Below, piece by piece: positions 14,465-26,889 of a stretch of 37,233 nt of DNA; position 1 is the stretch's first letter; the number at the start of each line of letters is the position of its first letter. Location of the stretch: the IMG/VR virus record IMGVR_UViG_3300037511_000194, positions 1-37,233 of that record. One strand, written 5' to 3'. The DNA comes from a virus. Its lineage: Duplodnaviria; Caudoviricetes. The notes under the pieces were generated by a model. The model had not been told where the DNA came from. It ran no database searches and saw nothing but the letters and a program-made list of their open reading frames with translations. A program made the translations under genes and the position numbers.

Positions 14465-15166
14465 CTAGACGGAGTAGTCCACCTTGGTCCGCACCGCCTT
14501 CGCGTGATCTTCTGGCGTCCGCGTGGTGCCGCCCGCGCTCGCCATGCCGCGCTGCTCCGGCACTCCACGCCCATCGCCGCCTGCTCCGCTTCCGTTCCCG
14601 TTGGCCGAAGCCACCAGCACGGGCGCGAGATACGGCCACTTCTCCTTGATGATGTCCGCCACGCGCACCTGCTTGCCGTCCACGGTCGCGAACGCCGTCT
14701 TCTGTTTCACGTTTTCCTTCTTGCCCGCGTTCAGGCGCTCCACGGTCACTTCGCCTTCGCTCAACTCCAATGCGTCGAAGCCCGTGGTGTTCTGGAGCAC
14801 GTCGGGCGCCTGTTCGTTCCACCCCTCGGTAGCGAGCGCGCTGCGCAGGATGTCCTTGCGGTCGCGCTGCTTCTTCTCCGTCGCCAGCGTGTCGCGCTCC
14901 GTCTTCAGCATCGCCACGTCCTCCGGCTTGACGCCCAGCGCCTTCCACGCCTCGTACGTCTTGGCATCGTCCGCCGTCAGCACAATCGAACCTTCGGGCG
15001 GCAGCCCCTTGGCCTTCTCCTTCAGCCCTTCGATTTCCCTTCTCTGCTTCTGATTGTCGGCTTCAAGCTCGCCAATCTTCCGCGTCACATCTGCCGGGCT
15101 GGAGGCGATCAGGCGGAACGCTACAAGGTCCGCGTAATCGCGTTCGGAGAACGCTACTTCGGCCAC
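14465..15166 (-). CDS. Capsid scaffolding protein
   Basis: GTG 15166 with AGGGG RBS; charged coiled coil (LEADNQKQRREIEGLKEK) and Gly-rich C-terminal tail. Confidence 0.7.
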   Translation of the reverse strand: MAEVAFSERDYADLVAFRLIASSPADVTRKIGELEADNQKQRREIEGLKEKAKGLPPEGSIVLTADDAKTYEAWKALGVKPEDVAMLKTERDTLATEKKQRDRKDILRSALATEGWNEQAPDVLQNTTGFDALELSEGEVTVERLNAGKKENVKQKTAFATVDGKQVRVADIIKEKWPYLAPVLVASANGNGSGAGGDGRGVPEQRGMASAGGTTRTPEDHAKAVRTKVDYSV

Positions 15167-15192
15167 GGTGGAACCCCTGTCTGTCTGGTGAG

Positions 15193-15269
15193 GCCCCGGC
15201 ATCCGGGGCGCAGCGCGGCGGCATCCGTCGCGGGCGGTGGAGGGCTGCGGCCGGGAGCATCCCCCGGCC
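15193..15269. repeat. Three tandem GC hairpins, each with an ATG/CAT triloop
   Basis: GCCCCGG-CAT-CCGGGGC (15193-15209), CGCGGCGG-CAT-CCGTCGCG (15214-15232), GGCCGGGAG-CAT-CCCCCGGCC (15249-15269). Confidence 0.75.
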
Positions 15270-15439: not shown

Positions 15440-15444
15440 CTTAG

Positions 15445-15517
15445 AGCCGTCGCCGGGAGTCGAACCCGGAACCGTCGCCTTGGAAGGGCGTTGCTCTGCC
15501 AATTGAGCTACGGCGGC
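15445..15517 (-). tRNA. tRNA-Gly(TCC)
   Basis: GCCGCCG TA GCTC AATTGGCA GAGC A ACGCC CTTCCAA GGCGA CGGTT CCGGG TTCGACT CCCGG CGACGGC T; U73 discriminator; one acceptor-stem mismatch; CCA not encoded. Confidence 0.85.
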
Positions 15518-15669
15518 ACTTCCCACTGCGGCGCTCGCGCCTTCGGGCCGTGGGCGCCCGTTCAGGTTTTCCCTGACCCAGCTTCCGGTGCACTGGTCTT
15601 ATCGGCCCCGAACGGTGCGCTTATCGCCAGCGTCGATCCAGAGAGCACGATGCGGCGCCGTAGCGCCAG

Positions 15670-15742
15670 AGGTCCGCGCAGGGTTCAAACCTGCGACCGC
15701 TCGCTTACGAGGCGAGTGCTCTATCAACTGAGCTAGCGGACC
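15670..15742 (-). tRNA. tRNA-Thr(CGT) with non-canonical A19/U56
   Basis: GGTCCGC TA GCTC AGTTGATA GAGC A CTCGC CTCGTAA GCGAG CGGTC GCAGG TTTGAAC CCTGC GCGGACC T; all four stems pair perfectly. Confidence 0.85.
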
Positions 15743-15988: not shown

Positions 15989-16215
15989 GTGCGTCGCATT
16001 TCAACCCTGAACGATACCCGCCCGTCCTCCTCCTCGTGCTTCGGAGGATCGGTTGCTTGACCCATCCAGACCTGCCCGTCCGCAGTCACTTCAAACCACG
16101 GGTTTGGCGCTTCTGGTATTTGACTTTCCCATGCTGTCACGTGAAGGGTCGCACTCTCGGCGGTATGAACCTTGAACGTCGCCTCCACGCCGTTAGACAA
16201 CGCCATTGTGTGCAT
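15985..16215 (-). CDS. Hypothetical protein
   Basis: ATG 16215 (or 16206) after GAGG/AGG; MHTMALSNGVEATFKV... Confidence 0.55.
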   Translation of the reverse strand: MHTMALSNGVEATFKVHTAESATLHVTAWESQIPEAPNPWFEVTADGQVWMGQATDPPKHEEEDGRVSFRVEMRRT

Positions 16216-16226
16216 CCTGTATATCC

Positions 16227-16555
16227 TCAACCTGTGCAAGGTGAGCAGGGCGTGACACCGCCGCACTGAGAGTCCACGCACGACAGGCAGGTATGCCACA
16301 TCGTTGGCCCGCACGTCGGCATCCCAGCGCATCCCGACCTGCGCAGGTCCCCATCCCTGCGCAGGTGGCGAACGTCGGTTCTCCGCCGCCGCCGCAAGTG
16401 TCTGGATCGCCGGAATACTGCACGCATCCACCCCAGCAGGTATCCTCCAGCGCGCCAGTCGCTAGACCCTGCACCGTTCCTGACCCGTGGAACGCCAGCG
16501 TCTCGAACGATTCTACCGCCAGCGTATCCAGATCCAGCCTCAGTTTCGCGGCCAT
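16227..16555 (-). CDS. RiPP precursor 1 (pinensin-like lanthipeptide leader, Cys-rich core), interrupted by a 1-nt frameshift near 16333
   Basis: Leader MAAKLRLDLDTLAVESFET..GTVQG; the Cys-rich core continues in the -1 frame as GCAGMPTCGPTMWHTCLSCVDSQCGGVTPCSPCTG*; GGGAGG RBS. Confidence 0.75.
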
Positions 16556-16596
16556 TTGACCTACCCTCCCGTGTCAAGGTGGGCATACGGTTGCGG

Positions 16597-17055
16597 TCAA
16601 ATCACAGGGTAATATTTGTCCAACCGCAGGTCAATGCCAGAAACGTTGGAATCTACGGTTGCTGCTACAACAGTCAGGCAGCGGATGCGCTCCTGCTCCG
16701 CTTTCTGCTGAGGCGTGAGGCCGTCAGGGCCGATGTACTTTAGGGCCGTGCCGCCGAAGTAAGGCACTGGTGCAAACCAAGTCGGGTGGGTGGATGCATA
16801 GCGCGCTCGCAGGCTGCGCTCCACGTCCGCATTCATCGCTGTGCTCTCTTCCATACACATCCAATTCTTTCTCCCATTCGAACAGAAACGTTCGCCGCGG
16901 TTTCCCTGCATCTGAGCAGGTCGCACGCGTAGTGCAAGGTTAAAAAGCAGGTGGCGCCAGTATTCCCACGGCGCATAGTGGCATTCCGGCTCGTACATCC
17001 ACCATGGGCGCACCCCGAACCAGAAGCAGCACCAGACAGATTTGCGCCTGCTCAT
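16597..17055 (-). CDS. Hypothetical protein (Trp/Cys-rich N-terminus; may be two genes, second ATG at 16836)
   Basis: ATGA overlap with the MuF-like gene; internal RBS-like GGAAGAG before ATG 16836. Confidence 0.4.
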   Translation of the reverse strand: MSRRKSVWCCFWFGVRPWWMYEPECHYAPWEYWRHLLFNLALRVRPAQMQGNRGERFCSNGRKNWMCMEESTAMNADVERSLRARYASTHPTWFAPVPYFGGTALKYIGPDGLTPQQKAEQERIRCLTVVAATVDSNVSGIDLRLDKYYPVI

Positions 17056-17663
17056 CTATATTCCCACGAGCACCGGTCACGTACCTTGCAATCCCGCTCC
17101 CCAATCTCCGTCTGCGCAGGATCGTTGATAGGAAGCCAGCCACGGGCGGCGGCCTCTATACAGCCCTGACACGAATCCGTCTTGTGTCGGATGCTTTTCC
17201 TTTCCGTGGCTCCGCGCACTAGCTGCTCCGCCTTCTCAAAACGATGGTGGAGGGGTCTGCCAGCTTGCGCGTATAGACGGACGCGAGCGTTGAGCGAATC
17301 AGAGAGTGATTGCTTCCCCGTCGCCACGTCGCGCATGAACCCACGCAGGTACTTGTACTGATCCTGCACGTAGCGCCCGACGCGTCCGTAATCCGCCTCA
17401 GTCATCTGCGCCCATCCGCCCTTCGCCGCCGCGCCGCTGTAGACGGAGACAACCTTCACTTCGCGGCGCATCCGCACTTCCCAGGTAATCAGGTCGATGG
17501 AGCCGGAGCGCAGTTGGTTCGCCAGCACGTCCATGCGCTTGCCTGCCGACTCTAGCGCGCTGTCGAGGTATGCACGGACGCGGGACGCGGGAACCAGCCT
17601 GCCGCTGGTGTCCCTGTACCTGCCAAGGGCGCGGTCGTATCGGAACGGCGGACGTTCAGCCAC
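17052..17663 (-). CDS. Minor head protein (MuF / SPP1 gp7-like)
   Basis: RYRDTSGRLV, QYKYLRGF, RVRLYAQ and C-terminal SCQGC...GW...EIGERDCKVRDRCSWEY motifs. Confidence 0.7.
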   Translation of the reverse strand: MAERPPFRYDRALGRYRDTSGRLVPASRVRAYLDSALESAGKRMDVLANQLRSGSIDLITWEVRMRREVKVVSVYSGAAAKGGWAQMTEADYGRVGRYVQDQYKYLRGFMRDVATGKQSLSDSLNARVRLYAQAGRPLHHRFEKAEQLVRGATERKSIRHKTDSCQGCIEAAARGWLPINDPAQTEIGERDCKVRDRCSWEYR

Positions 17664-17901
17664 GGCGATTCCGCCTACGGTTCTCCCGCTGCATCTTACG
17701 CCGCTTGCGGCGTTGCTCCGCCGCCCACTTGGCTAGCGGGCTCTTGCTACTACGTGGCACGTACACGCCCTGCTCCTTGCCAAGGAGGTTCATCGCCCGC
17801 CGTGACAGGTGATCCGGTACGGGAGTGTAGGCGGCGCGCTCGCTGGCGGTCATGCGTGCGAGGGTTGTGGACGTCACGAGATGATTGGTGTCGGTATTCA
17901 T
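17656..17901 (-). CDS. Basic hypothetical protein
   Basis: ATGA overlap at 17901; YTPVPDHL motif; Arg-rich C-terminus. Confidence 0.55.
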   Translation of the reverse strand: MNTDTNHLVTSTTLARMTASERAAYTPVPDHLSRRAMNLLGKEQGVYVPRSSKSPLAKWAAEQRRKRRKMQRENRRRNRRG

Positions 17902-18134
17902 GTGGGCCTGTTGTTGATGGAGAGAAACCATTCGGCGACCTGCGGCCCAACGACGTTGCGGTCCGTGGTCACGGCGATTACGCGGCCTTCGCCCTGATGC
18001 GGCGGCGTGAGGATGAACACGCCGAAGTGTGTACCGGGCGGGAGCATGTCACGCACCGTGTCCATTACCTTTTGCGCAAGCGGAGCCGCCCTCAGAGCAA
18101 ATCTCGCGTCCGCATCTACTTCCTCGTCTTTCAT
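17898..18134 (-). CDS. Hypothetical protein
   Basis: GGGGAG RBS; coupled start and stop. Confidence 0.6.
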   Translation of the reverse strand: MKDEEVDADARFALRAAPLAQKVMDTVRDMLPPGTHFGVFILTPPHQGEGRVIAVTTDRNVVGPQVAEWFLSINNRPT

Positions 18135-18325
18135 CTCCCCTGCTTCCCGTGTCCAATGTGAAAGTACCCGCAGTGAGGACAGGTGTATACCTCCAGCCCT
18201 TCGGCCGCACCCTTACGCTTCTGGATGCCCTCACGCTGCGCCTTGGCCCCTGCGCGTGAAGTGTGCTGCTGCTTGCCCGTCTTGTGGCACCAGCCGACGA
18301 CTGGAGACCAGCGACGCGTTTTCAT
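18131..18325 (-). CDS. Small zinc-binding protein
   Basis: C.KTGK...YTCPHCGYFHIGH motif. Confidence 0.6.
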   Translation of the reverse strand: MKTRRWSPVVGWCHKTGKQQHTSRAGAKAQREGIQKRKGAAEGLEVYTCPHCGYFHIGHGKQGR

Positions 18326-18330
18326 TGGGG

Positions 18331-18567
18331 CTAGCGGCTGATCCAGCGGGTGAACGCATCCACGGCATCCGTCAAGCGGTCCAGCGTCCAGATGGCTACG
18401 CGCTCCCACAGCGGCTTCCGGCGCAGCCGCATCGCCAGCAACCGCGCCTCTTCGTCCGTCGGCGGTGGAATGCGGCTGAAGGCCGCCTCCACCTCTTCCA
18501 AGGTAAAGCCAGAGCGCGAGAGGATGCGACTCGCTTTCGCTATCTGCTCAGACGTGGGATGGTTCAT
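18331..18567 (-). CDS. Hypothetical protein
   Basis: ATGA overlap at 18567; MNHPTSEQIAKAS... Confidence 0.55.
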   Translation of the reverse strand: MNHPTSEQIAKASRILSRSGFTLEEVEAAFSRIPPPTDEEARLLAMRLRRKPLWERVAIWTLDRLTDAVDAFTRWISR

Positions 18568-18902
18568 ACTGGGGGCTTTCCGGGCAACCTGAAGTCGGTT
18601 ATCAATCTCTCGCCTAAAAATGCGGCATAGTCCTTCGCATAGCGATGGTCGCCGCGATCTTTCCAATGATTCAACCAGTCGCGCTGTACCTGTACCGCGA
18701 AGGCTTCAAGTTCTGTGGTCAGGTGGATGCCATCACCTACCGGCATCTCCACCTCATACGCATCCGGGCCGGGGCCGGGAAACGTGTCCCCGCAGTGCCA
18801 GCGCCAACCGTCCTCTGTGCGAATCCAAAAGCCGCCGCCGATGGCGAATGCCTTTGTACCGACAGGGTAATTATGCCACTGCCGATGCGGTTTGAATTTC
18901 AT
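18564..18902 (-). CDS. Hypothetical protein (Trp-rich N-terminus)
   Basis: ATGA overlap; YPVGTKAFAIGGGFWIRTEDGWRW. Confidence 0.6.
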   Translation of the reverse strand: MKFKPHRQWHNYPVGTKAFAIGGGFWIRTEDGWRWHCGDTFPGPGPDAYEVEMPVGDGIHLTTELEAFAVQVQRDWLNHWKDRGDHRYAKDYAAFLGERLITDFRLPGKPPV

Positions 18903-19117
18903 GCGTCCGCCAGTTCTGAGGCGAGAGAGGAAAGAGCTGCGGCGCGCTCAAGCGCCAAATCGCGAACGACGGCCTTCCATCCCTTTGGGGGCGGGCGTCT
19001 GGCATCGGAGGCTAGGCGCGTCTGGCTCACCGTGTTCTCTGAAACGCCCAAGGCTTCCGCCATCGTTTTGATGATCGGCGGCCCCGCCAGCACGTCCACA
19101 GCCTTGTTGTAGTCCAT
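18899..19117 (-). CDS. Cro/XRE-like helix-turn-helix regulator
   Basis: MAEALGVSENTVSQTR HTH; GGAGAAGG RBS; divergent from the plus-strand operon. Confidence 0.65.
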   Translation of the reverse strand: MDYNKAVDVLAGPPIIKTMAEALGVSENTVSQTRLASDARRPPPKGWKAVVRDLALERAAALSSLASELADA

Positions 19118-19132
19118 CCTTCTCCTGCTCGC

Positions 19133-19174
19133 GTAAGATACTCTTGACACGATCCGTCGCCCACTGTATCTTAC
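19133..19174 (+). promoter_or_regulatory. Sigma70 promoter with flanking 9-bp inverted repeat (putative operator)
   Basis: TTGACA (19144-49), 17 nt, TATCTT (19167-72); GTAAGATAC 19133-41 and GTATCTTAC 19166-74. Confidence 0.75.
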
Positions 19175-19215
19175 ATGTCAGAGAGACGAAGCGCAACCCC
19201 GACGGAGCGGAGACG

Positions 19216-19482
19216 ATGGAAGCGGTTCAGGTGGCATCGGTAACGGCGACCCTGCACGCGGCGGGCCTGACCGCCACCCGGATCGTACGTCGAGTGCGAC
19301 GGAGCGGCTACAACGCGCGTCAGGTGAACGCATATCGCGTGGCCGTGTTCTTTACGCACTACGGAGAGCGCCGGGCGGAGATGGAAGCCGCCGCAGAGCG
19401 CGCCCTGTGCGCCGCCGGGTACGCCGTTTCGCGGCCTTTCCAGAACAGCAACGGCGTGCTGTTCGTGACTCACTCGCGCTAG
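19216..19482 (+). CDS. Hypothetical protein, first gene of the plus-strand cassette
   Basis: GGAG RBS and ATG 19216. Confidence 0.6.
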   Translation: MEAVQVASVTATLHAAGLTATRIVRRVRRSGYNARQVNAYRVAVFFTHYGERRAEMEAAAERALCAAGYAVSRPFQNSNGVLFVTHSR

Positions 19483-19495
19483 CCGGAGACGACCT

Positions 19496-19723
19496 TTGAG
19501 CGCAGAGACCATCTGTCCGACCTGCGGGCGCCCAGCCAGCAGTCCATATCGCATCTTCAACTCGTCGGGCGAGGTGGAAGAGGGGTGCGTGGACGCTGCA
19601 CACGACGGCGAGTTGCAAGCCCTCTCCGCATCCGCCCGCTGGCACAGCCGAGATGTGTCCGTGCGCATCCGGAAGGAAGCAGAGCGTATCCGCGGAACCA
19701 GAGGCGCGGTGACCGATGCCTAA
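19496..19723 (+). CDS. Hypothetical protein with Zn-binding motif
   Basis: TTG start with GGAG RBS; CPTCGRP..PYR...EGCVDAAH. Confidence 0.6.
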   Translation: MSAETICPTCGRPASSPYRIFNSSGEVEEGCVDAAHDGELQALSASARWHSRDVSVRIRKEAERIRGTRGAVTDA

Positions 19724-19919
19724 GCCTACCTACAAGATCGTGGAGCGCGATAAGCGCTACTTCGTCTTCGGCTACGTCGGCGCGGGAAAGTACATGCAGT
19801 GCTCGGAAGGCTACAGACGGTATGCGGACGCTGTGCAGCGGATGCGCCTCAACTGCGGTTCCGAGCGAGCGGCCAAGGCGGAGTTGCTTGGCTGGAACGG
19901 CACCTCCATCAACGATTGA
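19716..19919 (+). CDS. Hypothetical protein
   Basis: Overlapping start and stop within the operon. Confidence 0.6.
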   Translation: MPKPTYKIVERDKRYFVFGYVGAGKYMQCSEGYRRYADAVQRMRLNCGSERAAKAELLGWNGTSIND

Positions 19920-19938
19920 CCACAGGAGCGAGGGGGCC

Positions 19939-20130
19939 ATGCAGGGCATCGTGATAGAGACGCGCGAGGCGCACCCCGGTCTGTACCGGGCCGAAGTCGC
20001 AGAGGGACCGGCTTGGGCGCGCGGATACCGTATCGACCGCACGTCACGCGGGGAAGCCTACAACGACCTATGCCACACCCTGCGCACCATTCGCGTTGGC
20101 GGGGTTGATTTCATCCACGTACCGGAGTGA
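19939..20130 (+). CDS. Hypothetical protein
   Basis: GAGGGGG RBS and ATG 19939. Confidence 0.55.
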   Translation: MQGIVIETREAHPGLYRAEVAEGPAWARGYRIDRTSRGEAYNDLCHTLRTIRVGGVDFIHVPE

Positions 20131-20372
20131 CCACCATGAAGACACAACTTTGGGTAGTCAACGTCACGATGGAGATGGTAGTCCTCGCCCAAAACGAGGA
20201 GACAGCCAAGTCCGTCGCCGCAAGGTACGGCAGAGAGGGGACGGAAGACGCGCGGGAGATCGGCAGCGTTCGCCCCGTTCAAAGTTTGCAAGATTTGCCG
20301 AGGGGGTGGCGTGACGCCTTCCCGTGGAGCGACCTTGGGCAATTCATGACCTGCGGGGAAATGCTACGATGA
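20127..20372 (+). CDS. Hypothetical protein
   Basis: GTGA coupling; VVLAQNEETA and DLPRGWRDAFPW motifs. Confidence 0.6.
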   Translation: MTTMKTQLWVVNVTMEMVVLAQNEETAKSVAARYGREGTEDAREIGSVRPVQSLQDLPRGWRDAFPWSDLGQFMTCGEMLR

Positions 20373-20560
20373 ACGCCCGCGACGTACCCGCCTGTATGCG
20401 CATCCCCGTGGACGAAGCGAGAGCGTATGAGCATGGCTACGGCTTCGGCAACGCGGGGCTGTCTCGCGACACTAATCCGCACTTCCCGCACGGCGAGACG
20501 CGACGGCTGGCGGTGGCGTGGGATGAGGGCTGGTGCGATGGGCTGGAGGTACTGCCGTGA
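20369..20560 (+). CDS. Ribosome modulation factor (Rmf/CrpP-fold)-like protein
   Basis: RAYEHGYGFGNAGLSRDTNPH...AWDEGWCDG resembles the RMF pattern RA...GY.AG..G.S...CPY...W..GW..G. Confidence 0.55.
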   Translation: MNARDVPACMRIPVDEARAYEHGYGFGNAGLSRDTNPHFPHGETRRLAVAWDEGWCDGLEVLP

Positions 20561-20991
20561 GCGTTCCATCGCTTAACCGCACCGCGGAACGCCCATGGTG
20601 CGCCACAGAAGTAGTGCGTCTGGCGTTGGGTGGCTTTGCTGCGGAAGCCTTTGCCGACAGCGCCGATGCGGGATACTGGTCGGCGGTTTGGGATGATGTG
20701 TGTGTCGGGGTGCTGGCCTATCGACGTCCCGGCTTGGGATACGGCACATGGACCCTGTCGTGGTTGGCCGTGCGGCCCGCGTGGCAACACAGGGGAGTTG
20801 GGCGCCTGCTCGTCAACGCGTGGCTGGCGGACACGGGACCGCACATGGCCTACGTCGCTTCGGCGCTTCCCGCTGTCGGGTTCTACAAGCGCATGGGCTT
20901 TCGGCCTGTTCGTCGCCAGAGGCACCCATATGGATCAGACGATACGCTGCTGATGGTCCTCGAAACCTCAATCAATGGAGCGGACAAGTGA
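20557..20991 (+). CDS. GNAT family N-acetyltransferase
   Basis: Motif A LAVRPAWQHRGVGRLL and motif B AVGFYKRMGF. Confidence 0.85.
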   Translation: MSVPSLNRTAERPWCATEVVRLALGGFAAEAFADSADAGYWSAVWDDVCVGVLAYRRPGLGYGTWTLSWLAVRPAWQHRGVGRLLVNAWLADTGPHMAYVASALPAVGFYKRMGFRPVRRQRHPYGSDDTLLMVLETSINGADK

Positions 20992-21236
20992 GCGATAACG
21001 TTGGAGACACCGGCCGCCAACTGGCGCATCGTATCGACGCGCTGGTGGGTGAAATGCGCGCGCTGTTGGGGGACGTGCTGCAACACGTCGGACCGTACGA
21101 CACGGAGGCGCTGGCGACGATGGCAGAGGAAGGGAAGGTGATCGTCTTGCGGCTGGACGGGTTCGCTAAGCGGGTGCGTGAGGGCAACTTCAAGCCCGCT
21201 ACCGTGTGGCGCAAGCCTACAGCCACGCGCGGCTAG
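20988..21236 (+). CDS. Hypothetical protein, last gene of the plus-strand cassette
   Basis: GTGA coupling with GGAG RBS; stop overlaps the convergent gene's stop (CTAG). Confidence 0.55.
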   Translation: MSDNVGDTGRQLAHRIDALVGEMRALLGDVLQHVGPYDTEALATMAEEGKVIVLRLDGFAKRVREGNFKPATVWRKPTATRG

Positions 21237-21403
21237 CCTCCGTCCTCTCCCTCGTACTCCGGAGCGTCCAGAAGCGCCCTGCCGTCAGGTGGAGCGTCTT
21301 GCTGCCATGCTGCGGCCGCGTCGTCACGGTCTGCGGGCGTGATCTGCGCGAGGCTTGCGGCCTGATCGTCGGACAGTTCGGGTGGAATCTGCTGGCGTTT
21401 CAT
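21233..21403 (-). CDS. 56-aa acidic hypothetical protein (not in ORF track)
   Basis: ATGA overlap with the HslV-like stop; MKRQQIPPELSDDQAASLAQITPADRDDAAAAWQQDAPPDGRALLDAPEYEGEDGG. Confidence 0.55.
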   Translation of the reverse strand: MKRQQIPPELSDDQAASLAQITPADRDDAAAAWQQDAPPDGRALLDAPEYEGEDGG

Positions 21404-21972
21404 GCGACAGCGGAGAGAGCGAGGGTTTGGGGTGGATTAAAGCAGAACGGGCTGCGCACCGCGTCAGTATGGTTCTCCGCCGCCTCCAGCGCCCAGCGGA
21501 TACGACGCATGGGGTCGAACTCCGCCGTGACCGCCAGCACTCCCGACGCAACAGCGCGCGCGATTGGATGCCCGGCGGTGGCGTAACCGCGCGAGTTGTG
21601 GAACACGCACAGCCGGTCGGAGACGTTGAAGAGTTGCCCGCCACAGGAAACGAGAAATTCAGCGGTGGCGTTCTCTACCCCGTTTTCGCGCTCTATACTC
21701 CCTCCCGCTTCCAGAACTCCGCGGATGCGGGGAACCAACTCTCGCACAAGATAGCCTTGGCTGTCGTCGCCGATTTTTGCGGGCAACTCTGCGCACGCAT
21801 ACCTGACGAGCTGCGTCGCCCTGACCGTGCCTGCTCCGCCTAGAACGAGCGGGGGTAGCGAGAAGATTTTCGGGCTCGTGTGGGCATCCTCAAACCCGTC
21901 GCCATACCAGCCGCCGCAGTCCGCGCCCATGTATACCGCGCCCTCGTGCTCTATCCCGACGATCAGCGTCAT
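21400..21972 (-). CDS. HslV/proteasome-beta-like Ntn hydrolase
   Basis: N-terminal MTLIVG....AVYMGAD gives a Thr1 nucleophile; PKIF, GGAG and ALEAA...VRSPF motifs. Confidence 0.75.
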   Translation of the reverse strand: MTLIVGIEHEGAVYMGADCGGWYGDGFEDAHTSPKIFSLPPLVLGGAGTVRATQLVRYACAELPAKIGDDSQGYLVRELVPRIRGVLEAGGSIERENGVENATAEFLVSCGGQLFNVSDRLCVFHNSRGYATAGHPIARAVASGVLAVTAEFDPMRRIRWALEAAENHTDAVRSPFCFNPPQTLALSAVA

Positions 21973-22219
21973 GGTCTCTGGTTCGGTTCAGGTCTGGGCG
22001 GTATACGGGCCAAACATCTTTCAGGGCTCCACCATCCAATACAATCCACCCCCAGACGAGGTTGACGTTTTCCGGTCGCGAGTAGCGCACGCCCACGGGA
22101 GCGGCGTAGACGGTGGCGCTCATTTCACCTTGGCGGACAACTTCAAGGATGCGTAGCGTTGTGGGCTCTCCACTCCGCGCGGCCTCCAGCCACGGCTCCG
22201 GAAGTGCAGGGTGACTCAT
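21890..22219 (-). CDS. Hypothetical protein (3' end uncertain)
   Basis: ATGA overlap with portal stop; the 83-nt overlap with the next gene suggests the true end is near 21969. Confidence 0.4.
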   Translation of the reverse strand: MSHPALPEPWLEAARSGEPTTLRILEVVRQGEMSATVYAAPVGVRYSRPENVNLVWGWIVLDGGALKDVWPVYRPDLNRTRDHDADRRDRARGRGIHGRGLRRLVWRRV

Positions 22220-24042
22220 TGCGTCAGGTTGGGTGGGCCGTCGGTGCGCAGCGCTGCATCGGCCTGTTCCGCCGTATATCCCATTTCGTTCATCAGGAAC
22301 CACTTCCTGTCCACGCCGCTGCCCGCTGCGCCTTCAAACATGGTCCAGCGGCGCTCCTGCGTCGCCAGCGTGCGCTCCTGCGCGATCCTGGCGCGCGTGG
22401 CGGCTACGTCCTGCACCCCCAGCCGCGCGGTGCCTTCCTCTGCGTCCAGCAACTCACCCTGCACGGCCGCCAGCGTCGCGGTCTGCGCCGCCACGGACGG
22501 GCTGCCAGCGCTGGGATGGCTCTGGACCTGCACGGCGTAGTTGTCCGCGAAGTCCGGTGCTTCAGAGCCAGCAAGCCAGTCGGCAGCAATCGTTACCCAT
22601 GTGAGCCCGGCGGCGAGCGCGCCGTCCACGGCTTCGGCAACGCCCCTGATGTCGTTGAAGAACCCGGCTCGCGCCTGCTCATAGGCTTCTCCGCTGGCCT
22701 CTGCCGTGCTGCCCGTCAAGCCGCTGCGGCGGTGCCCCTGACGGCAGGCGTAGCGCATCATCATCGTGTGGGCGTCCGCACCTTCAATGATGTTGGCGAC
22801 CTGCGACGGCTCGTGGTAACTGACTTCCGGCGTAGTGAATCCGAACACAGGCGCGCCGTCCGCGTTGACGCCAGTCTGGTACGGGAAGCCGTTCAGCTTG
22901 CGGATAACTTCCGGTCCAAGATTGGCGTCTGCGGGCCAGAGGTAGTAAGTGACATTGTCAACAACCTGTGTCGTCGGCAGGTCGATGCCGGGCGGCGGCG
23001 TGGTCTTCCACTCTCCGTCTTCCTGCGCGTTGCTTTCCGTGCGCTGCCCATAACCATGCGCCTGGATCAGACGCGTGAGCGATGTGGCATCCAAGTCAAG
23101 CGCCGCCTGGATGCGCACCACTGCGGGCGTCAGGATGCAGCCCACGTCCGCGCTGACAACAGGAATCCAGCCGCCCCATGGATAGCGCGTCTCCGCGGTG
23201 TCGGCGCCCTCTGTCAACAGGCGCAGCACGGTTATGCCGCCTTCGTTGAACCACGTCTCCGCGCACTTCCTGTTCTGTGAATCATCGAACAGGAATACGC
23301 CCGTCTTTTCGTGCGTGTCGGGGTCGATGTAGACGGCGCAGGTATTGGGCGGCGGAGCCACGACGCGGATGTGCCGGAGCGCTGCTGCGCGGTCTGGCTG
23401 GCGCGGAATCCGCTGCTCCGTGCCGACGACTTCGCCCGACTCGTTTTTGATGGCGACTTCCTGCGTGCGGCTTGCCGGATTGAAGAAGAAGCGCAGGCAC
23501 GCCTGCCCGCTCTTGGACATGGAGCCCTGCGCCACCATGCCCTTGACGCCCGTGGGGTTGCGGATATTGCTGCCACCCCACAGTCCTTCGGTCGTCCACC
23601 ACGCCGACAGATCGCGCTCCCACTCGTCAACTGCGCGCTTCTGTTCGTCGGAGAGCCCACGCACGCCCTTCTCGTCAGCCGCGCCCGCTGGCTCCTTCGC
23701 ACCTACCGTGATGCTGGCCTCGTTCGCGCACGCCCCGTCCACGCGTTCGGTAAGGCACGTGTACATCTCCGGATTGGGCGTCAGGAGGCGGGTAAGGTCC
23801 GACTTGGCCTTGGGGGTAAGCTGGCCGTTTACGTCGAAGCCAGCACCGATCCAGGGCTTGCCGTCCTGTAGGTGATCGGCCAGCACCACGTAGGCGTAGA
23901 CGCTGTCCGCGTGGCCCTTGTCGAAGCCGCCGGGGAAATTGGCCGTGGCAGCCGCCAGCGCATGGTCGTACGTCCACTCCCGCCGGTCGCGTGGCGGGGT
24001 GGAGGTTGAGGCGCTGTTCGTGGTGGGCGTGGCTAGGGCCAT
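22216..24042 (-). CDS. Portal protein
   Basis: 608 aa downstream of TerL and upstream of the MuF-like gene; ASGEA motif of SPP1/A118-like portals; assigned mainly by synteny. Confidence 0.7.
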   Translation of the reverse strand: MALATPTTNSASTSTPPRDRREWTYDHALAAATANFPGGFDKGHADSVYAYVVLADHLQDGKPWIGAGFDVNGQLTPKAKSDLTRLLTPNPEMYTCLTERVDGACANEASITVGAKEPAGAADEKGVRGLSDEQKRAVDEWERDLSAWWTTEGLWGGSNIRNPTGVKGMVAQGSMSKSGQACLRFFFNPASRTQEVAIKNESGEVVGTEQRIPRQPDRAAALRHIRVVAPPPNTCAVYIDPDTHEKTGVFLFDDSQNRKCAETWFNEGGITVLRLLTEGADTAETRYPWGGWIPVVSADVGCILTPAVVRIQAALDLDATSLTRLIQAHGYGQRTESNAQEDGEWKTTPPPGIDLPTTQVVDNVTYYLWPADANLGPEVIRKLNGFPYQTGVNADGAPVFGFTTPEVSYHEPSQVANIIEGADAHTMMMRYACRQGHRRSGLTGSTAEASGEAYEQARAGFFNDIRGVAEAVDGALAAGLTWVTIAADWLAGSEAPDFADNYAVQVQSHPSAGSPSVAAQTATLAAVQGELLDAEEGTARLGVQDVAATRARIAQERTLATQERRWTMFEGAAGSGVDRKWFLMNEMGYTAEQADAALRTDGPPNLTQ

Positions 24043-24092
24043 GCGGCAGCGGGGATTCGAGGGAGCGGGCGAAGAAAGCCGTTCAGGTGTGA

Positions 24093-24121
24093 ACTATAGG
24101 CGCTGTCGAAGGCAGGTGCAA
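24093..24121 (-). promoter_or_regulatory. Sigma70-type promoter upstream of portal
   Basis: TTGCAC-17 nt-TATAGT. Confidence 0.6.
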
Positions 24122-24162
24122 TGGGCGAAGCGCCCGGTCAAAGACGGCCTCGCCGTTCTCGT

Positions 24163-24486
24163 TTAGCAGATGCCGGAGCAGCAGGCGGCGATGCCGGTGC
24201 ACGAGTCCATGCACACGGTCGGACGCGGACAGGACTGGCAGGTCGCGTCGTCGCAGGTGTAGGGACAGGTGTTCTGGCCGCAGTGCGTGAACAGGGTGTC
24301 GGGTGGACACGGCCCGCACGCCGTCTCGGCCGAGGCGCCACCGCCGCCGCAGGTGTCGTAGTTGGTGTCGTCCACGCAGAGCGCGCCCGTGCGCCCCTTC
24401 ACTGTCCCGAAGCCTTCTGCGGGGTTACGCCCGGTGGCAAAGCTCTCCACCATCAGTTCGTCGAGGTCCAGCTTCAGCTTCCGCAT
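24163..24486 (-). CDS. RiPP precursor 2 (pinensin-like lanthipeptide leader, 14-Cys core), 107 aa
   Basis: GAGGAGG RBS; MRKLKLDLDELMVESFATG..GTVKG leader; Thr/Cys/Gly-rich core ending CCSGIC. Confidence 0.85.
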   Translation of the reverse strand: MRKLKLDLDELMVESFATGRNPAEGFGTVKGRTGALCVDDTNYDTCGGGGASAETACGPCPPDTLFTHCGQNTCPYTCDDATCQSCPRPTVCMDSCTGIAACCSGIC

Positions 24487-24550
24487 AGTCGCCTCCTCAG
24501 GCATCCGCGGTTATGCGCCACGCTCTCACCCGGCGCCCGGTCTCCGCAGC

Positions 24551-24781
24551 CTATGCCCTGCGGCCGGCGATGCTGTTGTGGTACGCGTCAAATGCTTCCG
24601 CCAGCCTTAGCCGCTGGCGGTGGACTTCTGGATGGGTTGGGGCGTTGAAGGAGCAGAGTTGATCCACGTACGCGGACGCCACGTCAATCACAGCCTGTCT
24701 GGCTGCCTCTGCGTCCATGCCGCGTGGAAACTCGCGCTCTCTCATCTCCCCTTCCTGCGCGTTTGGGATTTCCTTAGTCAC
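24551..24781 (-). CDS. Hypothetical protein
   Basis: GTGA overlap at 24781 with GGAGGG RBS. Confidence 0.5.
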   Translation of the reverse strand: MTKEIPNAQEGEMREREFPRGMDAEAARQAVIDVASAYVDQLCSFNAPTHPEVHRQRLRLAEAFDAYHNSIAGRRA

Positions 24782-25380: not shown

Positions 25381-26889
25381 TTACCGCCGCGCGCTGCGCG
25401 TAGTGGGGACGCCTGCCCACGGGTTCACTGCGGCGCGGTTGTTCAGCATCAGTTCGGTGAAGAGCCACACGACAGCGTCAAGCCGGTTGGGCGATGGATC
25501 GCCAGGGGACCACGTGCACTGCTCTCGTTCCAAGGGAGCGAAGTGGCCCGCGTGGTGCACCCTGCCATCCTCGTATAGTTTCTGTACCGGCTCTGCCCGC
25601 GTGAGCTTTCCCCGGCTGGCGTGGATCAACTTGACGCGAGGCGCCTTGGGCACGGTGCCGATGGTGATCGCCACCATTTCGCCGCCGTTGTTAGCTTCGG
25701 CCACGAGCACATCCGCATTCCACTCGTTGTATGCGTCAACGCTGGCCTGCGCCCACTTCTTCGGCCCGCCCGCCAGGGTCGCATCCCGCAAGAGCACACC
25801 GTGCACCACGCCGCCGCGCTTCTCGATACCGCCAACCATGATCCCGGCTTCGTCGTTGCCCTCAGAGGCGTTGGGATCGACGGCCACCACGATGCGGTAC
25901 AGGCGCCCCGTGTCCTCCGGAGAGAGTGGCACTTCGCGAAACGGGTTGATGTCCCGCTCACGCTGCCAGAGGCCGGATTCCGCCTCCGTTTCGTGCTGTG
26001 CCTCACGCAGAAACGCGCCTCTGCCCCACTCGTTGATCTGCGCTTCGCACGTGGCGAGGTTCTGGCCTTCCCACGTTGCTTCGCCACCCGTGATCCGCCA
26101 GCGCCGCGAGCCGTCTTCTCTGTCCTCATGCTTCAGCGTCAGACCGATTACGGCTGGTTCCTCGAACACCTCCCGGTCCAGAAGGAATTCTGCTTTGCCC
26201 TCTGCCAGTTGCGTGGCTATCGACAGGTCGTGGATGCGGTTCTGAATGAACAGCACGGCGGCATCAGAGGCGCCAGCGGGCAGGATGGATTCAGTGATCG
26301 TCTCTATTTTCTTTTTGATCGTGGGCGGTGAATCATGACGGTCGTCCACGTCGTCGATCACGAACAGGTCGGGCCTATCATCCCCCAACTTGACGCCGCG
26401 TGCAGCCGCGTCCACGCCAAGCGCGAGCACGCTGAATCCGTTGGCCGCGCGGAGAATGTCCATGCGCCAACCGATAGAATTGCCGTAGCCATTGACGGCC
26501 CTGCGGATGCCGAGCGCCTCGAACCTGCTGGCGATGGCTTGGACGTGCTTGTTGGCCTGATCCTGCGTGGCGCAGAGGTAGACGGCGAAGTTGCGGCTGC
26601 GCTTCACCCCCACGCGTGTCACACCCAATTCAGCCGTGCTGCTCTTGGCCCCGCCGCGCGGCCAGATTTCCACGTGGGCGGTGGGCTTTACGCCCGGAAC
26701 CAGTGCCTCAAACCATTCCCAAAGACGCACGTGCCGCAAGGCAAACGGTGCCTTCGCGGCCAGTGGGAAGTTACTGGTTACCCAGGTGCGCCAGTCGCCG
26801 CCCTCAAATAGCCCGGAGAGCAGCGTGTCCATCTCTGCGCGCTCTGGCTCTGTCAAGAAGGGCATTAACGCGCTTAGCTCGTTCGTCAT
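25381..26889 (-). CDS. terL: Terminase large subunit
   Basis: Walker A PRGGAKSS, Walker B LFVIDD, and nuclease motifs VAVDP, AEANNGG, SPNRLDA. Confidence 0.95.
   Translation of the reverse strand: MTNELSALMPFLTEPERAEMDTLLSGLFEGGDWRTWVTSNFPLAAKAPFALRHVRLWEWFEALVPGVKPTAHVEIWPRGGAKSSTAELGVTRVGVKRSRNFAVYLCATQDQANKHVQAIASRFEALGIRRAVNGYGNSIGWRMDILRAANGFSVLALGVDAAARGVKLGDDRPDLFVIDDVDDRHDSPPTIKKKIETITESILPAGASDAAVLFIQNRIHDLSIATQLAEGKAEFLLDREVFEEPAVIGLTLKHEDREDGSRRWRITGGEATWEGQNLATCEAQINEWGRGAFLREAQHETEAESGLWQRERDINPFREVPLSPEDTGRLYRIVVAVDPNASEGNDEAGIMVGGIEKRGGVVHGVLLRDATLAGGPKKWAQASVDAYNEWNADVLVAEANNGGEMVAITIGTVPKAPRVKLIHASRGKLTRAEPVQKLYEDGRVHHAGHFAPLEREQCTWSPGDPSPNRLDAVVWLFTELMLNNRAAVNPWAGVPTTRSARR

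Follow-up and report, generated by a model that had tools for sequence, protein, structure and literature searches.

Class I lanthipeptides belong to the RiPPs, peptides that the ribosome synthesizes and that are modified after translation, and are made from a precursor whose leader is bound by LanB, followed by tRNA-Glu-dependent dehydration, cyclization by LanC, export and proteolysis. Here, we compare the closest described systems with two precursor-like genes, A and B, of the soil phage record IMGVR_UViG_3300037511_000194 (37,233 bp, linear, estimated 70 % complete; the whole record was analysed and is referred to as the window). The precursors are a real, clade-conserved phage feature, and on balance we favour the reading that these phage genes encode class I lanthipeptide precursors whose maturation is carried out in trans by a promiscuous synthetase of the host.

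The nearest described family is that of pinensin from Chitinophaga pinensis (NF038180), which is the sole family match of both leaders and which, according to the available portion of PMC7268733, shares a split LanB with the operon of the probable host lineage. However, the phage leader reads LxLDxLxVESF...GTVx[G/H] rather than LxLxKx5L...GG and scores below the family cut-off, the phage cores are long (~50–85 aa, 7–14 Cys), and the genes belong to phages and have no enzyme genes next to them. The prochlorosins and synechococsins offer a parallel in organization, with one promiscuous synthetase (ProcM or SyncM) and many scattered precursors that combine a conserved leader with variable cores (PMC8524650, as far as its accessible text goes). 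These are class II systems (LanM) with a Gly-Gly leader, and SyncM, called the most promiscuous synthetase described in the same text, has 79 substrates, whereas the system of Longimicrobium belongs to class I and reaches 150+ profile matches per genome; moreover, phages would plug into the Longimicrobium-type system here. Our literature search for prochlorosins together with cyanophages found nothing on topic. Sublancin of SPbeta is, in the accessible part of 10.1101/2020.10.01.322628, a phage-encoded RiPP that could benefit phage or lysogen, but its enzymes, transporter and immunity gene are encoded along with it, whereas precursors are all that was found in the phages described here, with no integrase among the open reading frames (ORFs) scanned with Pfam in the window (37) and in its two complete relatives, G072 and G079. 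The lanthiphages of Actinobacteria likewise place class I lanthipeptides at the phage–host interface (10.1101/2024.06.26.600839; PMC12360287, both in part); there, however, complete clusters are encoded by the host, in defence islands and in another phylum, whereas here it is the phage that supplies the substrate gene. The available text of PMC11118758 mentions co-expression of host RiPPs with phage genes. No report of precursor-only phage lanthipeptide genes or of the Longimicrobium expansion was found in a literature search that left outside most subscription journals and the precursor lists of PMC7268733 and PMC11118758.

Gene B (24163..24486, minus strand) is an intact 107-aa ORF with 14 Cys; it lies at site B, 120 nt upstream of the portal gene, and is preceded by the ribosome site GAGGAG. 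Its leader comprises approximately residues 1–31, ending in GTVKG, and is followed by a core holding the 14 Cys. Gene A (16227..16555, minus strand), located between the genes for the minor capsid and scaffold proteins (site A), starts at 16555 behind a GGGAGG ribosome site and is broken near 16340 by a −1 frameshift. Translated from its start, it yields 120 aa with 8 Cys up to a stop at 16193, while the Cys-rich tail ending at 16227, including TCxSC, is read in the −1 frame; 109 aa with 12 Cys, with X at the break, require read-through of the frameshift. A first-pass annotation of the window had described two homologous RiPP precursors with strong ribosome sites and 12 and 14 Cys. The ribosome sites, the shared KLxLDLDxLxVESF, GTVxG, TGAL and DTCGGGG motifs and a homology beyond chance (pairwise BLASTP E 5e-9) were recovered for both genes, and gene B is as described; for gene A, however, the frameshift had gone unreported and the count of 12 Cys holds only if the break is read through. 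In this genome, a normal product would be expected from gene B only.

A leader hidden Markov model built without gene A scored gene A at 43.5 bits, whereas 20 shuffled windows did not exceed 8.4 bits. NF038180 was the only NCBIfam match of each start-frame peptide (20.1 and 13.3 bits), meaning that the pinensin-type leader proposed earlier is right as to the nearest family but falls short of its curated cut-off of 24 bits. The cut-off was passed by none of the seven other phage precursors, by one of nine host precursors and by neither of the two precursors in the bacterial cluster L012 (see below); with just one of the nine host precursors passing, a score below it is normal for this family. 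The leaders depart from the Bacteroidetes class I form (LxLxKx5L, often with a Gly-Gly end) in that Asp/Glu replaces Lys and the end is GTVx[G/H], and they show the MxKLxLxLxxLxVESF...GTV leader of the Longimicrobium-type alignment (A2), followed by a Cys/Thr-rich core. The RiPP-precursor anatomy first proposed, a conserved leader joined to a Ser/Thr/Cys core, is thus borne out. Neither window peptide had a match in Pfam or PHROGs. An exhaustive phmmer search returned 43 matches, mostly peptides of 70–120 aa with the same leader, at least one of which (the repeat protein P0026) was rejected as spurious; of 16 distinct matches looked up or named (P0003 aside), Longimicrobium and Ignavibacteria account for one each, and the others carry no organism. 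A word-index protein search with gene B returned only itself, the single match of a viral scan with gene B (L001) was discarded as chance, and leader DNA patterns run against IMG/VR gave real matches in one of two and one of 16 cases. No match was obtained in 50,697 GenBank phage records, and a metagenome scan yielded only the contig G073. Of 64 candidate stretches from 185,579 species genomes, 11 proved genuine, every one of them in Longimicrobium or Gemmatimonadetes metagenome-assembled genomes (MAGs).

One of these 11 loci, L012, is a class I cluster encoding a LanB N-part, a LanB C-part, LanC, an ABC transporter and, between LanC and the transporter, two same-leader precursors; no Lan enzymes were found in the other 10, among 76 ORFs scanned over all 11. 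Further copies of the operon exist, those of G002 and G005 having genes for HlyD and an S8 protease downstream, and five of the ten LanC loci fetched have a precursor within ~1.5 kb. The closest structure to the operon LanB is PDB 6EC7, which we take to be the split dehydratase TbtB, and the host-lineage system uses one LanB clade. Most bacterial precursors lie far from the LanBC operon. Five MAGs returned 73, 129, at least 150, 46 and 128 profile matches, confirming the expansion of the leader family in Longimicrobium-type bacteria that the first-pass annotation had put forward, and the same MAGs have 1–3 LanB matches and 2–5 LanC-domain matches each (some of LanM/LanL size). With 46–150+ precursors to 1–3 LanB matches, action in trans looks like the normal mode of the host. 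The leader was found in 38 of 71 Longimicrobiaceae genomes, often in 40 to 150+ copies; precursors and LanB occur together in 36 genomes, precursors only in two (one match each), LanB only in five and neither in 28 (G027 enters these counts as a double negative only). The association (Fisher p 2e-12) is inflated by kinship among the 71 genomes, and all 34 genomes with at least five precursors have LanB. The arrangement in G001–G005, G036 and others is that of a prochlorosin-like library, with a split-LanB/LanC operon and 40 to 150+ scattered precursor matches. Among the host arrays, one of ~10 precursors (L097:6368–11009, in G001:C178) includes some with runs of eight consecutive Cys, and five tandem same-leader precursors (L013:9200–10450) have Thr/Val/Ile-rich cores with 0–2 Cys, which suggests another modification route. 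L. terrae has three lanthipeptide clusters (PMC7291104).

On the phage side, a survey for the leader, as the first-pass annotation had proposed, found precursors in all four close relatives (one to four each where countable), mostly at the same two sites. G073 (7.2-kb fragment, portal 77 % identical) has a single precursor, sitting directly upstream of the portal gene. G072, a complete genome of 51.6 kb (capsid 84 %, portal 42 %), has a tandem pair between its terminase and portal genes, and the four precursors of G079, likewise complete at 54.8 kb (portal 50 %, tail tube 85 %), comprise one at site A and three next to an array of 13 tRNAs. The fourth, the 56.4-kb contig X2 from a soil run of another study, has an orthologue of gene A, while its alignment to gene B is limited to ~20 nt of the leader plus the upstream element. 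Capsid homologues with 72–84 % identity are also on record (P0050–P0056). Precursors were found in none of nine distant phages (five sharing the terminase only and four with capsid at 35–43 %), three of which are near complete; four of the ten loci with capsid at 35–43 % were searched whole, the other six giving no match within the fetched flanks. Nor was a precursor found in a distant prophage of the family genome G006, or anywhere in that genome, or in a 6.5-kb phage-like contig of the precursor-rich G036, which lacks the region upstream of the portal gene.

Six-frame searches for LanB, LanC and radical SAM enzymes gave no match in the window, G072, G079 or G073, while positive controls matched (e.g. 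G004); the window being 70 % complete, G072 and G079 are the two complete relatives behind this result. None of these four phages thus shows a cognate LanB and LanC in the same cluster or genome. By Pfam, no YcaO protein or transporter was seen in 48 of 56 picked ORFs of G072, 43 of 49 of G079 (outside the head region) or 37 of the window, in agreement with the earlier statement that the window holds no recognizable maturation gene.

The phage cores (n=9) and host cores (n=109) contain 15 and 18 % Cys, 12.9 and 12.9 % Thr and 0.2 and 0.5 % Lys, respectively, and Thr-Cys dipeptides are ~3-fold over shuffles in both alike. As expected of a LanA precursor, all nine phage cores have at least as many Ser plus Thr as Cys, giving a leader with a ring-capable core, and same-leader homologues are linked to LanB/LanC at L012, at half of the LanC loci and in 36 of the 38 precursor-bearing genomes. 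The cores form a site-A family (window, G079 and P0009; 59–81 % local identity) and a site-B family (window, G073, P0007 and P0008; 57–69 %), and phage cores from the two sites match each other better than any of the 109 host cores compared. The best match of the G079 site-A peptide in the 71 host genomes has an E value of 2e-9 and 42 % identity. Gene A and a second G079 precursor share a short block (E 0.007), a weak hint of mosaic cores among the phage precursors.

An 11-nt repeat of Thr-Cys codons occurs twice at a distance of 18 nt (16338..16366, minus strand), and the frame break in gene A falls inside the second copy, making local conversion or slippage plausible. X2 aligns to positions 16277–16462 and keeps the frame by means of an extra base behind 16340; the two sequences show 15 other differences, eight of them listed, and all five upstream of the break are synonymous. 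Both an assembly error and a real lesion are possible, the former because the contigs of the source run leave this spot uncovered. A programmed −1 frameshift was rejected, as there is no XXXYYYZ heptamer and the X2 and G079 counterparts are in frame. From the core families and the synonymous-biased changes in X2, selection probably acts on the phage cores. Such conservation suggests that the product matters rather than the leader alone, and the first-pass annotation having offered two options, a matured peptide or a leader decoy, the site-specific conserved cores would favour the former over a pure decoy.

Given a Longimicrobium-type leader and no maturation enzyme found in the phages, the peptides are likely dehydrated and cyclized in trans by host LanBC, and since most of the bacteria's own precursors are encoded far from the LanBC operon, one expressed from a phage in such a cell would be a trans substrate like any other. 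By class I chemistry, the leader would bind LanB of a Longimicrobiaceae host, Ser/Thr residues of the core would be glutamylated in a tRNA-Glu-dependent reaction and then eliminated by the split LanB, and LanC would add Cys thiols to form (methyl)lanthionine rings. The ABC/HlyD exporter and S8 protease of the operon may then export and trim the product, the outcome being phage-specified cyclic peptides. The precursors are co-oriented with late genes and are therefore probably made during lytic growth; this position, together with the absence of a detected integrase, favours a role in lytic infection. Our guess is that this role is that of an effector exploiting or countering the host's own lanthipeptide system, in defence or signalling. 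We infer a Longimicrobiaceae host from the leader family, GC content (62–64 % in the phages versus ~70 % in host loci) and related head/tail modules in four family genomes. Prophage-like tail modules with a tape measure 38–50 % identical to that of the window occur in the Longimicrobiaceae genomes G004 (C5, ~88–97 kb) and G011 (C68). A capsid homologue at E 1e-20 was found in none of 401 sampled genomes of the phylum, in a search without a positive control.

Several points weigh against maturation in trans by a Longimicrobiaceae synthetase. Modification of the precursors, enzyme binding and expression are all predictions, and both window peptides stay below the NF038180 cut-off. The genomes behind the co-occurrence counts are related and incomplete, and the counts are not independent. 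The leader type is also present in an Ignavibacteria MAG, and the Cys-poor, Thr/Val-rich cores of L013 suggest that it may serve other enzymes too. As for the host, the least secure part of this account, capsid homologues reach 42–45 % in Deinococcales, Trueperaceae and Chloroflexota MAGs, whereas a Longimicrobiaceae MAG gives 39 %. CRISPR spacers were looked for without success, and no array surrounds six short host matches. Within gene A, three of the eight listed X2 differences (15 in all) lie at the break or change a residue, and the break itself implies that at least one precursor copy may be dispensable.

The main rival is that the precursors are leader-mimic decoys or competitive substrates, which would tie up host LanB/LanC or glutamyl-tRNA and blunt a lanthipeptide-based anti-phage defence, any modified product being incidental. 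Class I lanthipeptide clusters protect Streptomyces from phages, as reported in the accessible parts of 10.1101/2024.06.26.600839 and PMC12360287, and the late-gene location, the copy number of one to four, the differing cores at the two sites and the intact leader still presented by the frameshifted gene A would all suit a decoy. However, a decoy acting through its leader alone needs neither within-site core conservation nor synonymous-biased change. To our knowledge, no anti-phage role has been described for the Longimicrobium system, whose scanned operon neighbours are not defence genes, and we regard the decoy as unlikely, if the most credible of the competing accounts. Recognition of this leader by another RiPP enzyme of the host, such as one of the radical SAM thioether type, would fit the Cys-poor precursors of L013 and the 2–5 LanC-domain proteins of the hosts, some LanM/LanL-sized; yet the enzymes found next to these precursors are LanB and LanC, while two radical SAM genes near host arrays look like housekeeping genes (a TRAM-domain protein and a UDG-linked protein), and we give this enzyme very little credence.

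Hosts saturated with up to 150+ small precursor genes per genome could also seed phages with neutral passengers, picked up by recombination and then decaying, and the frameshift in gene A is what such decay would look like. We consider this improbable as well, for the same two sites are used across phages with portal identity of only 42–77 %, the phage cores resemble one another more than they do the host cores compared, the nearest host relative of the G079 site-A peptide is distant, and the changes are synonymous-biased. It is similarly hard to credit that the peptides are unmodified Cys-rich small proteins, metal-binding or disulfide-bonded, such as virion accessories. Their 7–14 Cys and their location among morphogenesis genes would be in keeping with this, but the conservation of the N-terminal leader next to cores that vary, the presence of homologues within LanBC operons, Cys spacing that is not fixed, almost no Lys and the lack of a PHROG or Pfam match all speak otherwise, as does, weakly, the AlphaFold model of the gene B peptide, which is unstructured and of low confidence (pTM 0.19).

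The terminase, portal, capsid, tail and replication genes of the window all lie on the minus strand, as do the genes that mark the two sites. Site B is marked by the SPP1-type portal protein (22216..24042, minus strand). The upstream landmark of site A is a conserved head-module gene (phrog_24776; 17052..17663, minus strand), named minor capsid from its position only, and the downstream landmark is a putative scaffold protein (14465..15202, minus strand), named from its position before the capsid genes. Directly downstream of gene A are tRNA-Gly(TCC) and tRNA-Thr(CGT) (15444..15742, minus strand), a candidate link to the precursors only; no clear need for them was seen in the codons of genes A and B. 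The 13-tRNA array of G079 (L076:13725–14883), directly downstream of its precursors, includes tRNA-Glu, the LanB co-substrate. Upstream of gene B is a 43-nt element with a short inverted repeat (24527..24569, minus strand), identical in G073 (L002:4173–4215) despite diverged flanking genes and also covered by the X2 alignment; it is a possible regulatory element. No sigma-70 promoter or terminator was assigned to gene A or gene B. The terminases of G073 (L002:1743–3032) and the window (25381–26889) are of different Pfam types though the portals are 77 % identical, indicating module exchange. An HslV-like protein, possibly a protease, is encoded directly downstream of the portal gene (21400–21972) and is kept in G073 and the G036 contig. 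A GNAT acetyltransferase (20533–20991, plus strand, opposite to the precursors) was dropped as a candidate part of the system, being skipped in the X2 contig and unmatched in G072, G073 and G079. Escape mutants in phage GNATs are reported for lanthiphages in the available text of PMC12360287; no link to the GNAT of the window has been shown.

Phage RiPPs reported so far are whole clusters, and what is new here is a lanthipeptide precursor that would depend on host enzymes. Precursor-only cassettes kept across a phage clade would represent a compact viral reprogramming of host natural-product enzymes, of a kind missed by cluster-based mining. The probable host system is notable in itself, as a class I LanBC whose candidate substrates number up to 150+ would exceed the 79 of SyncM. 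More tentatively, and with more doubt than belief, the phage clade may keep, expand and shuffle precursor cassettes whose peptides the single promiscuous LanBC of the host cyclizes, the products serving as counter-defence or signalling effectors against a library of >100 peptides. If true, this would be a chemical arms race at the substrate level, and would suggest that phages are part of the reason for giant lanthipeptide libraries. A link to phages makes a role of prochlorosin-like libraries in defence or signalling directly testable.

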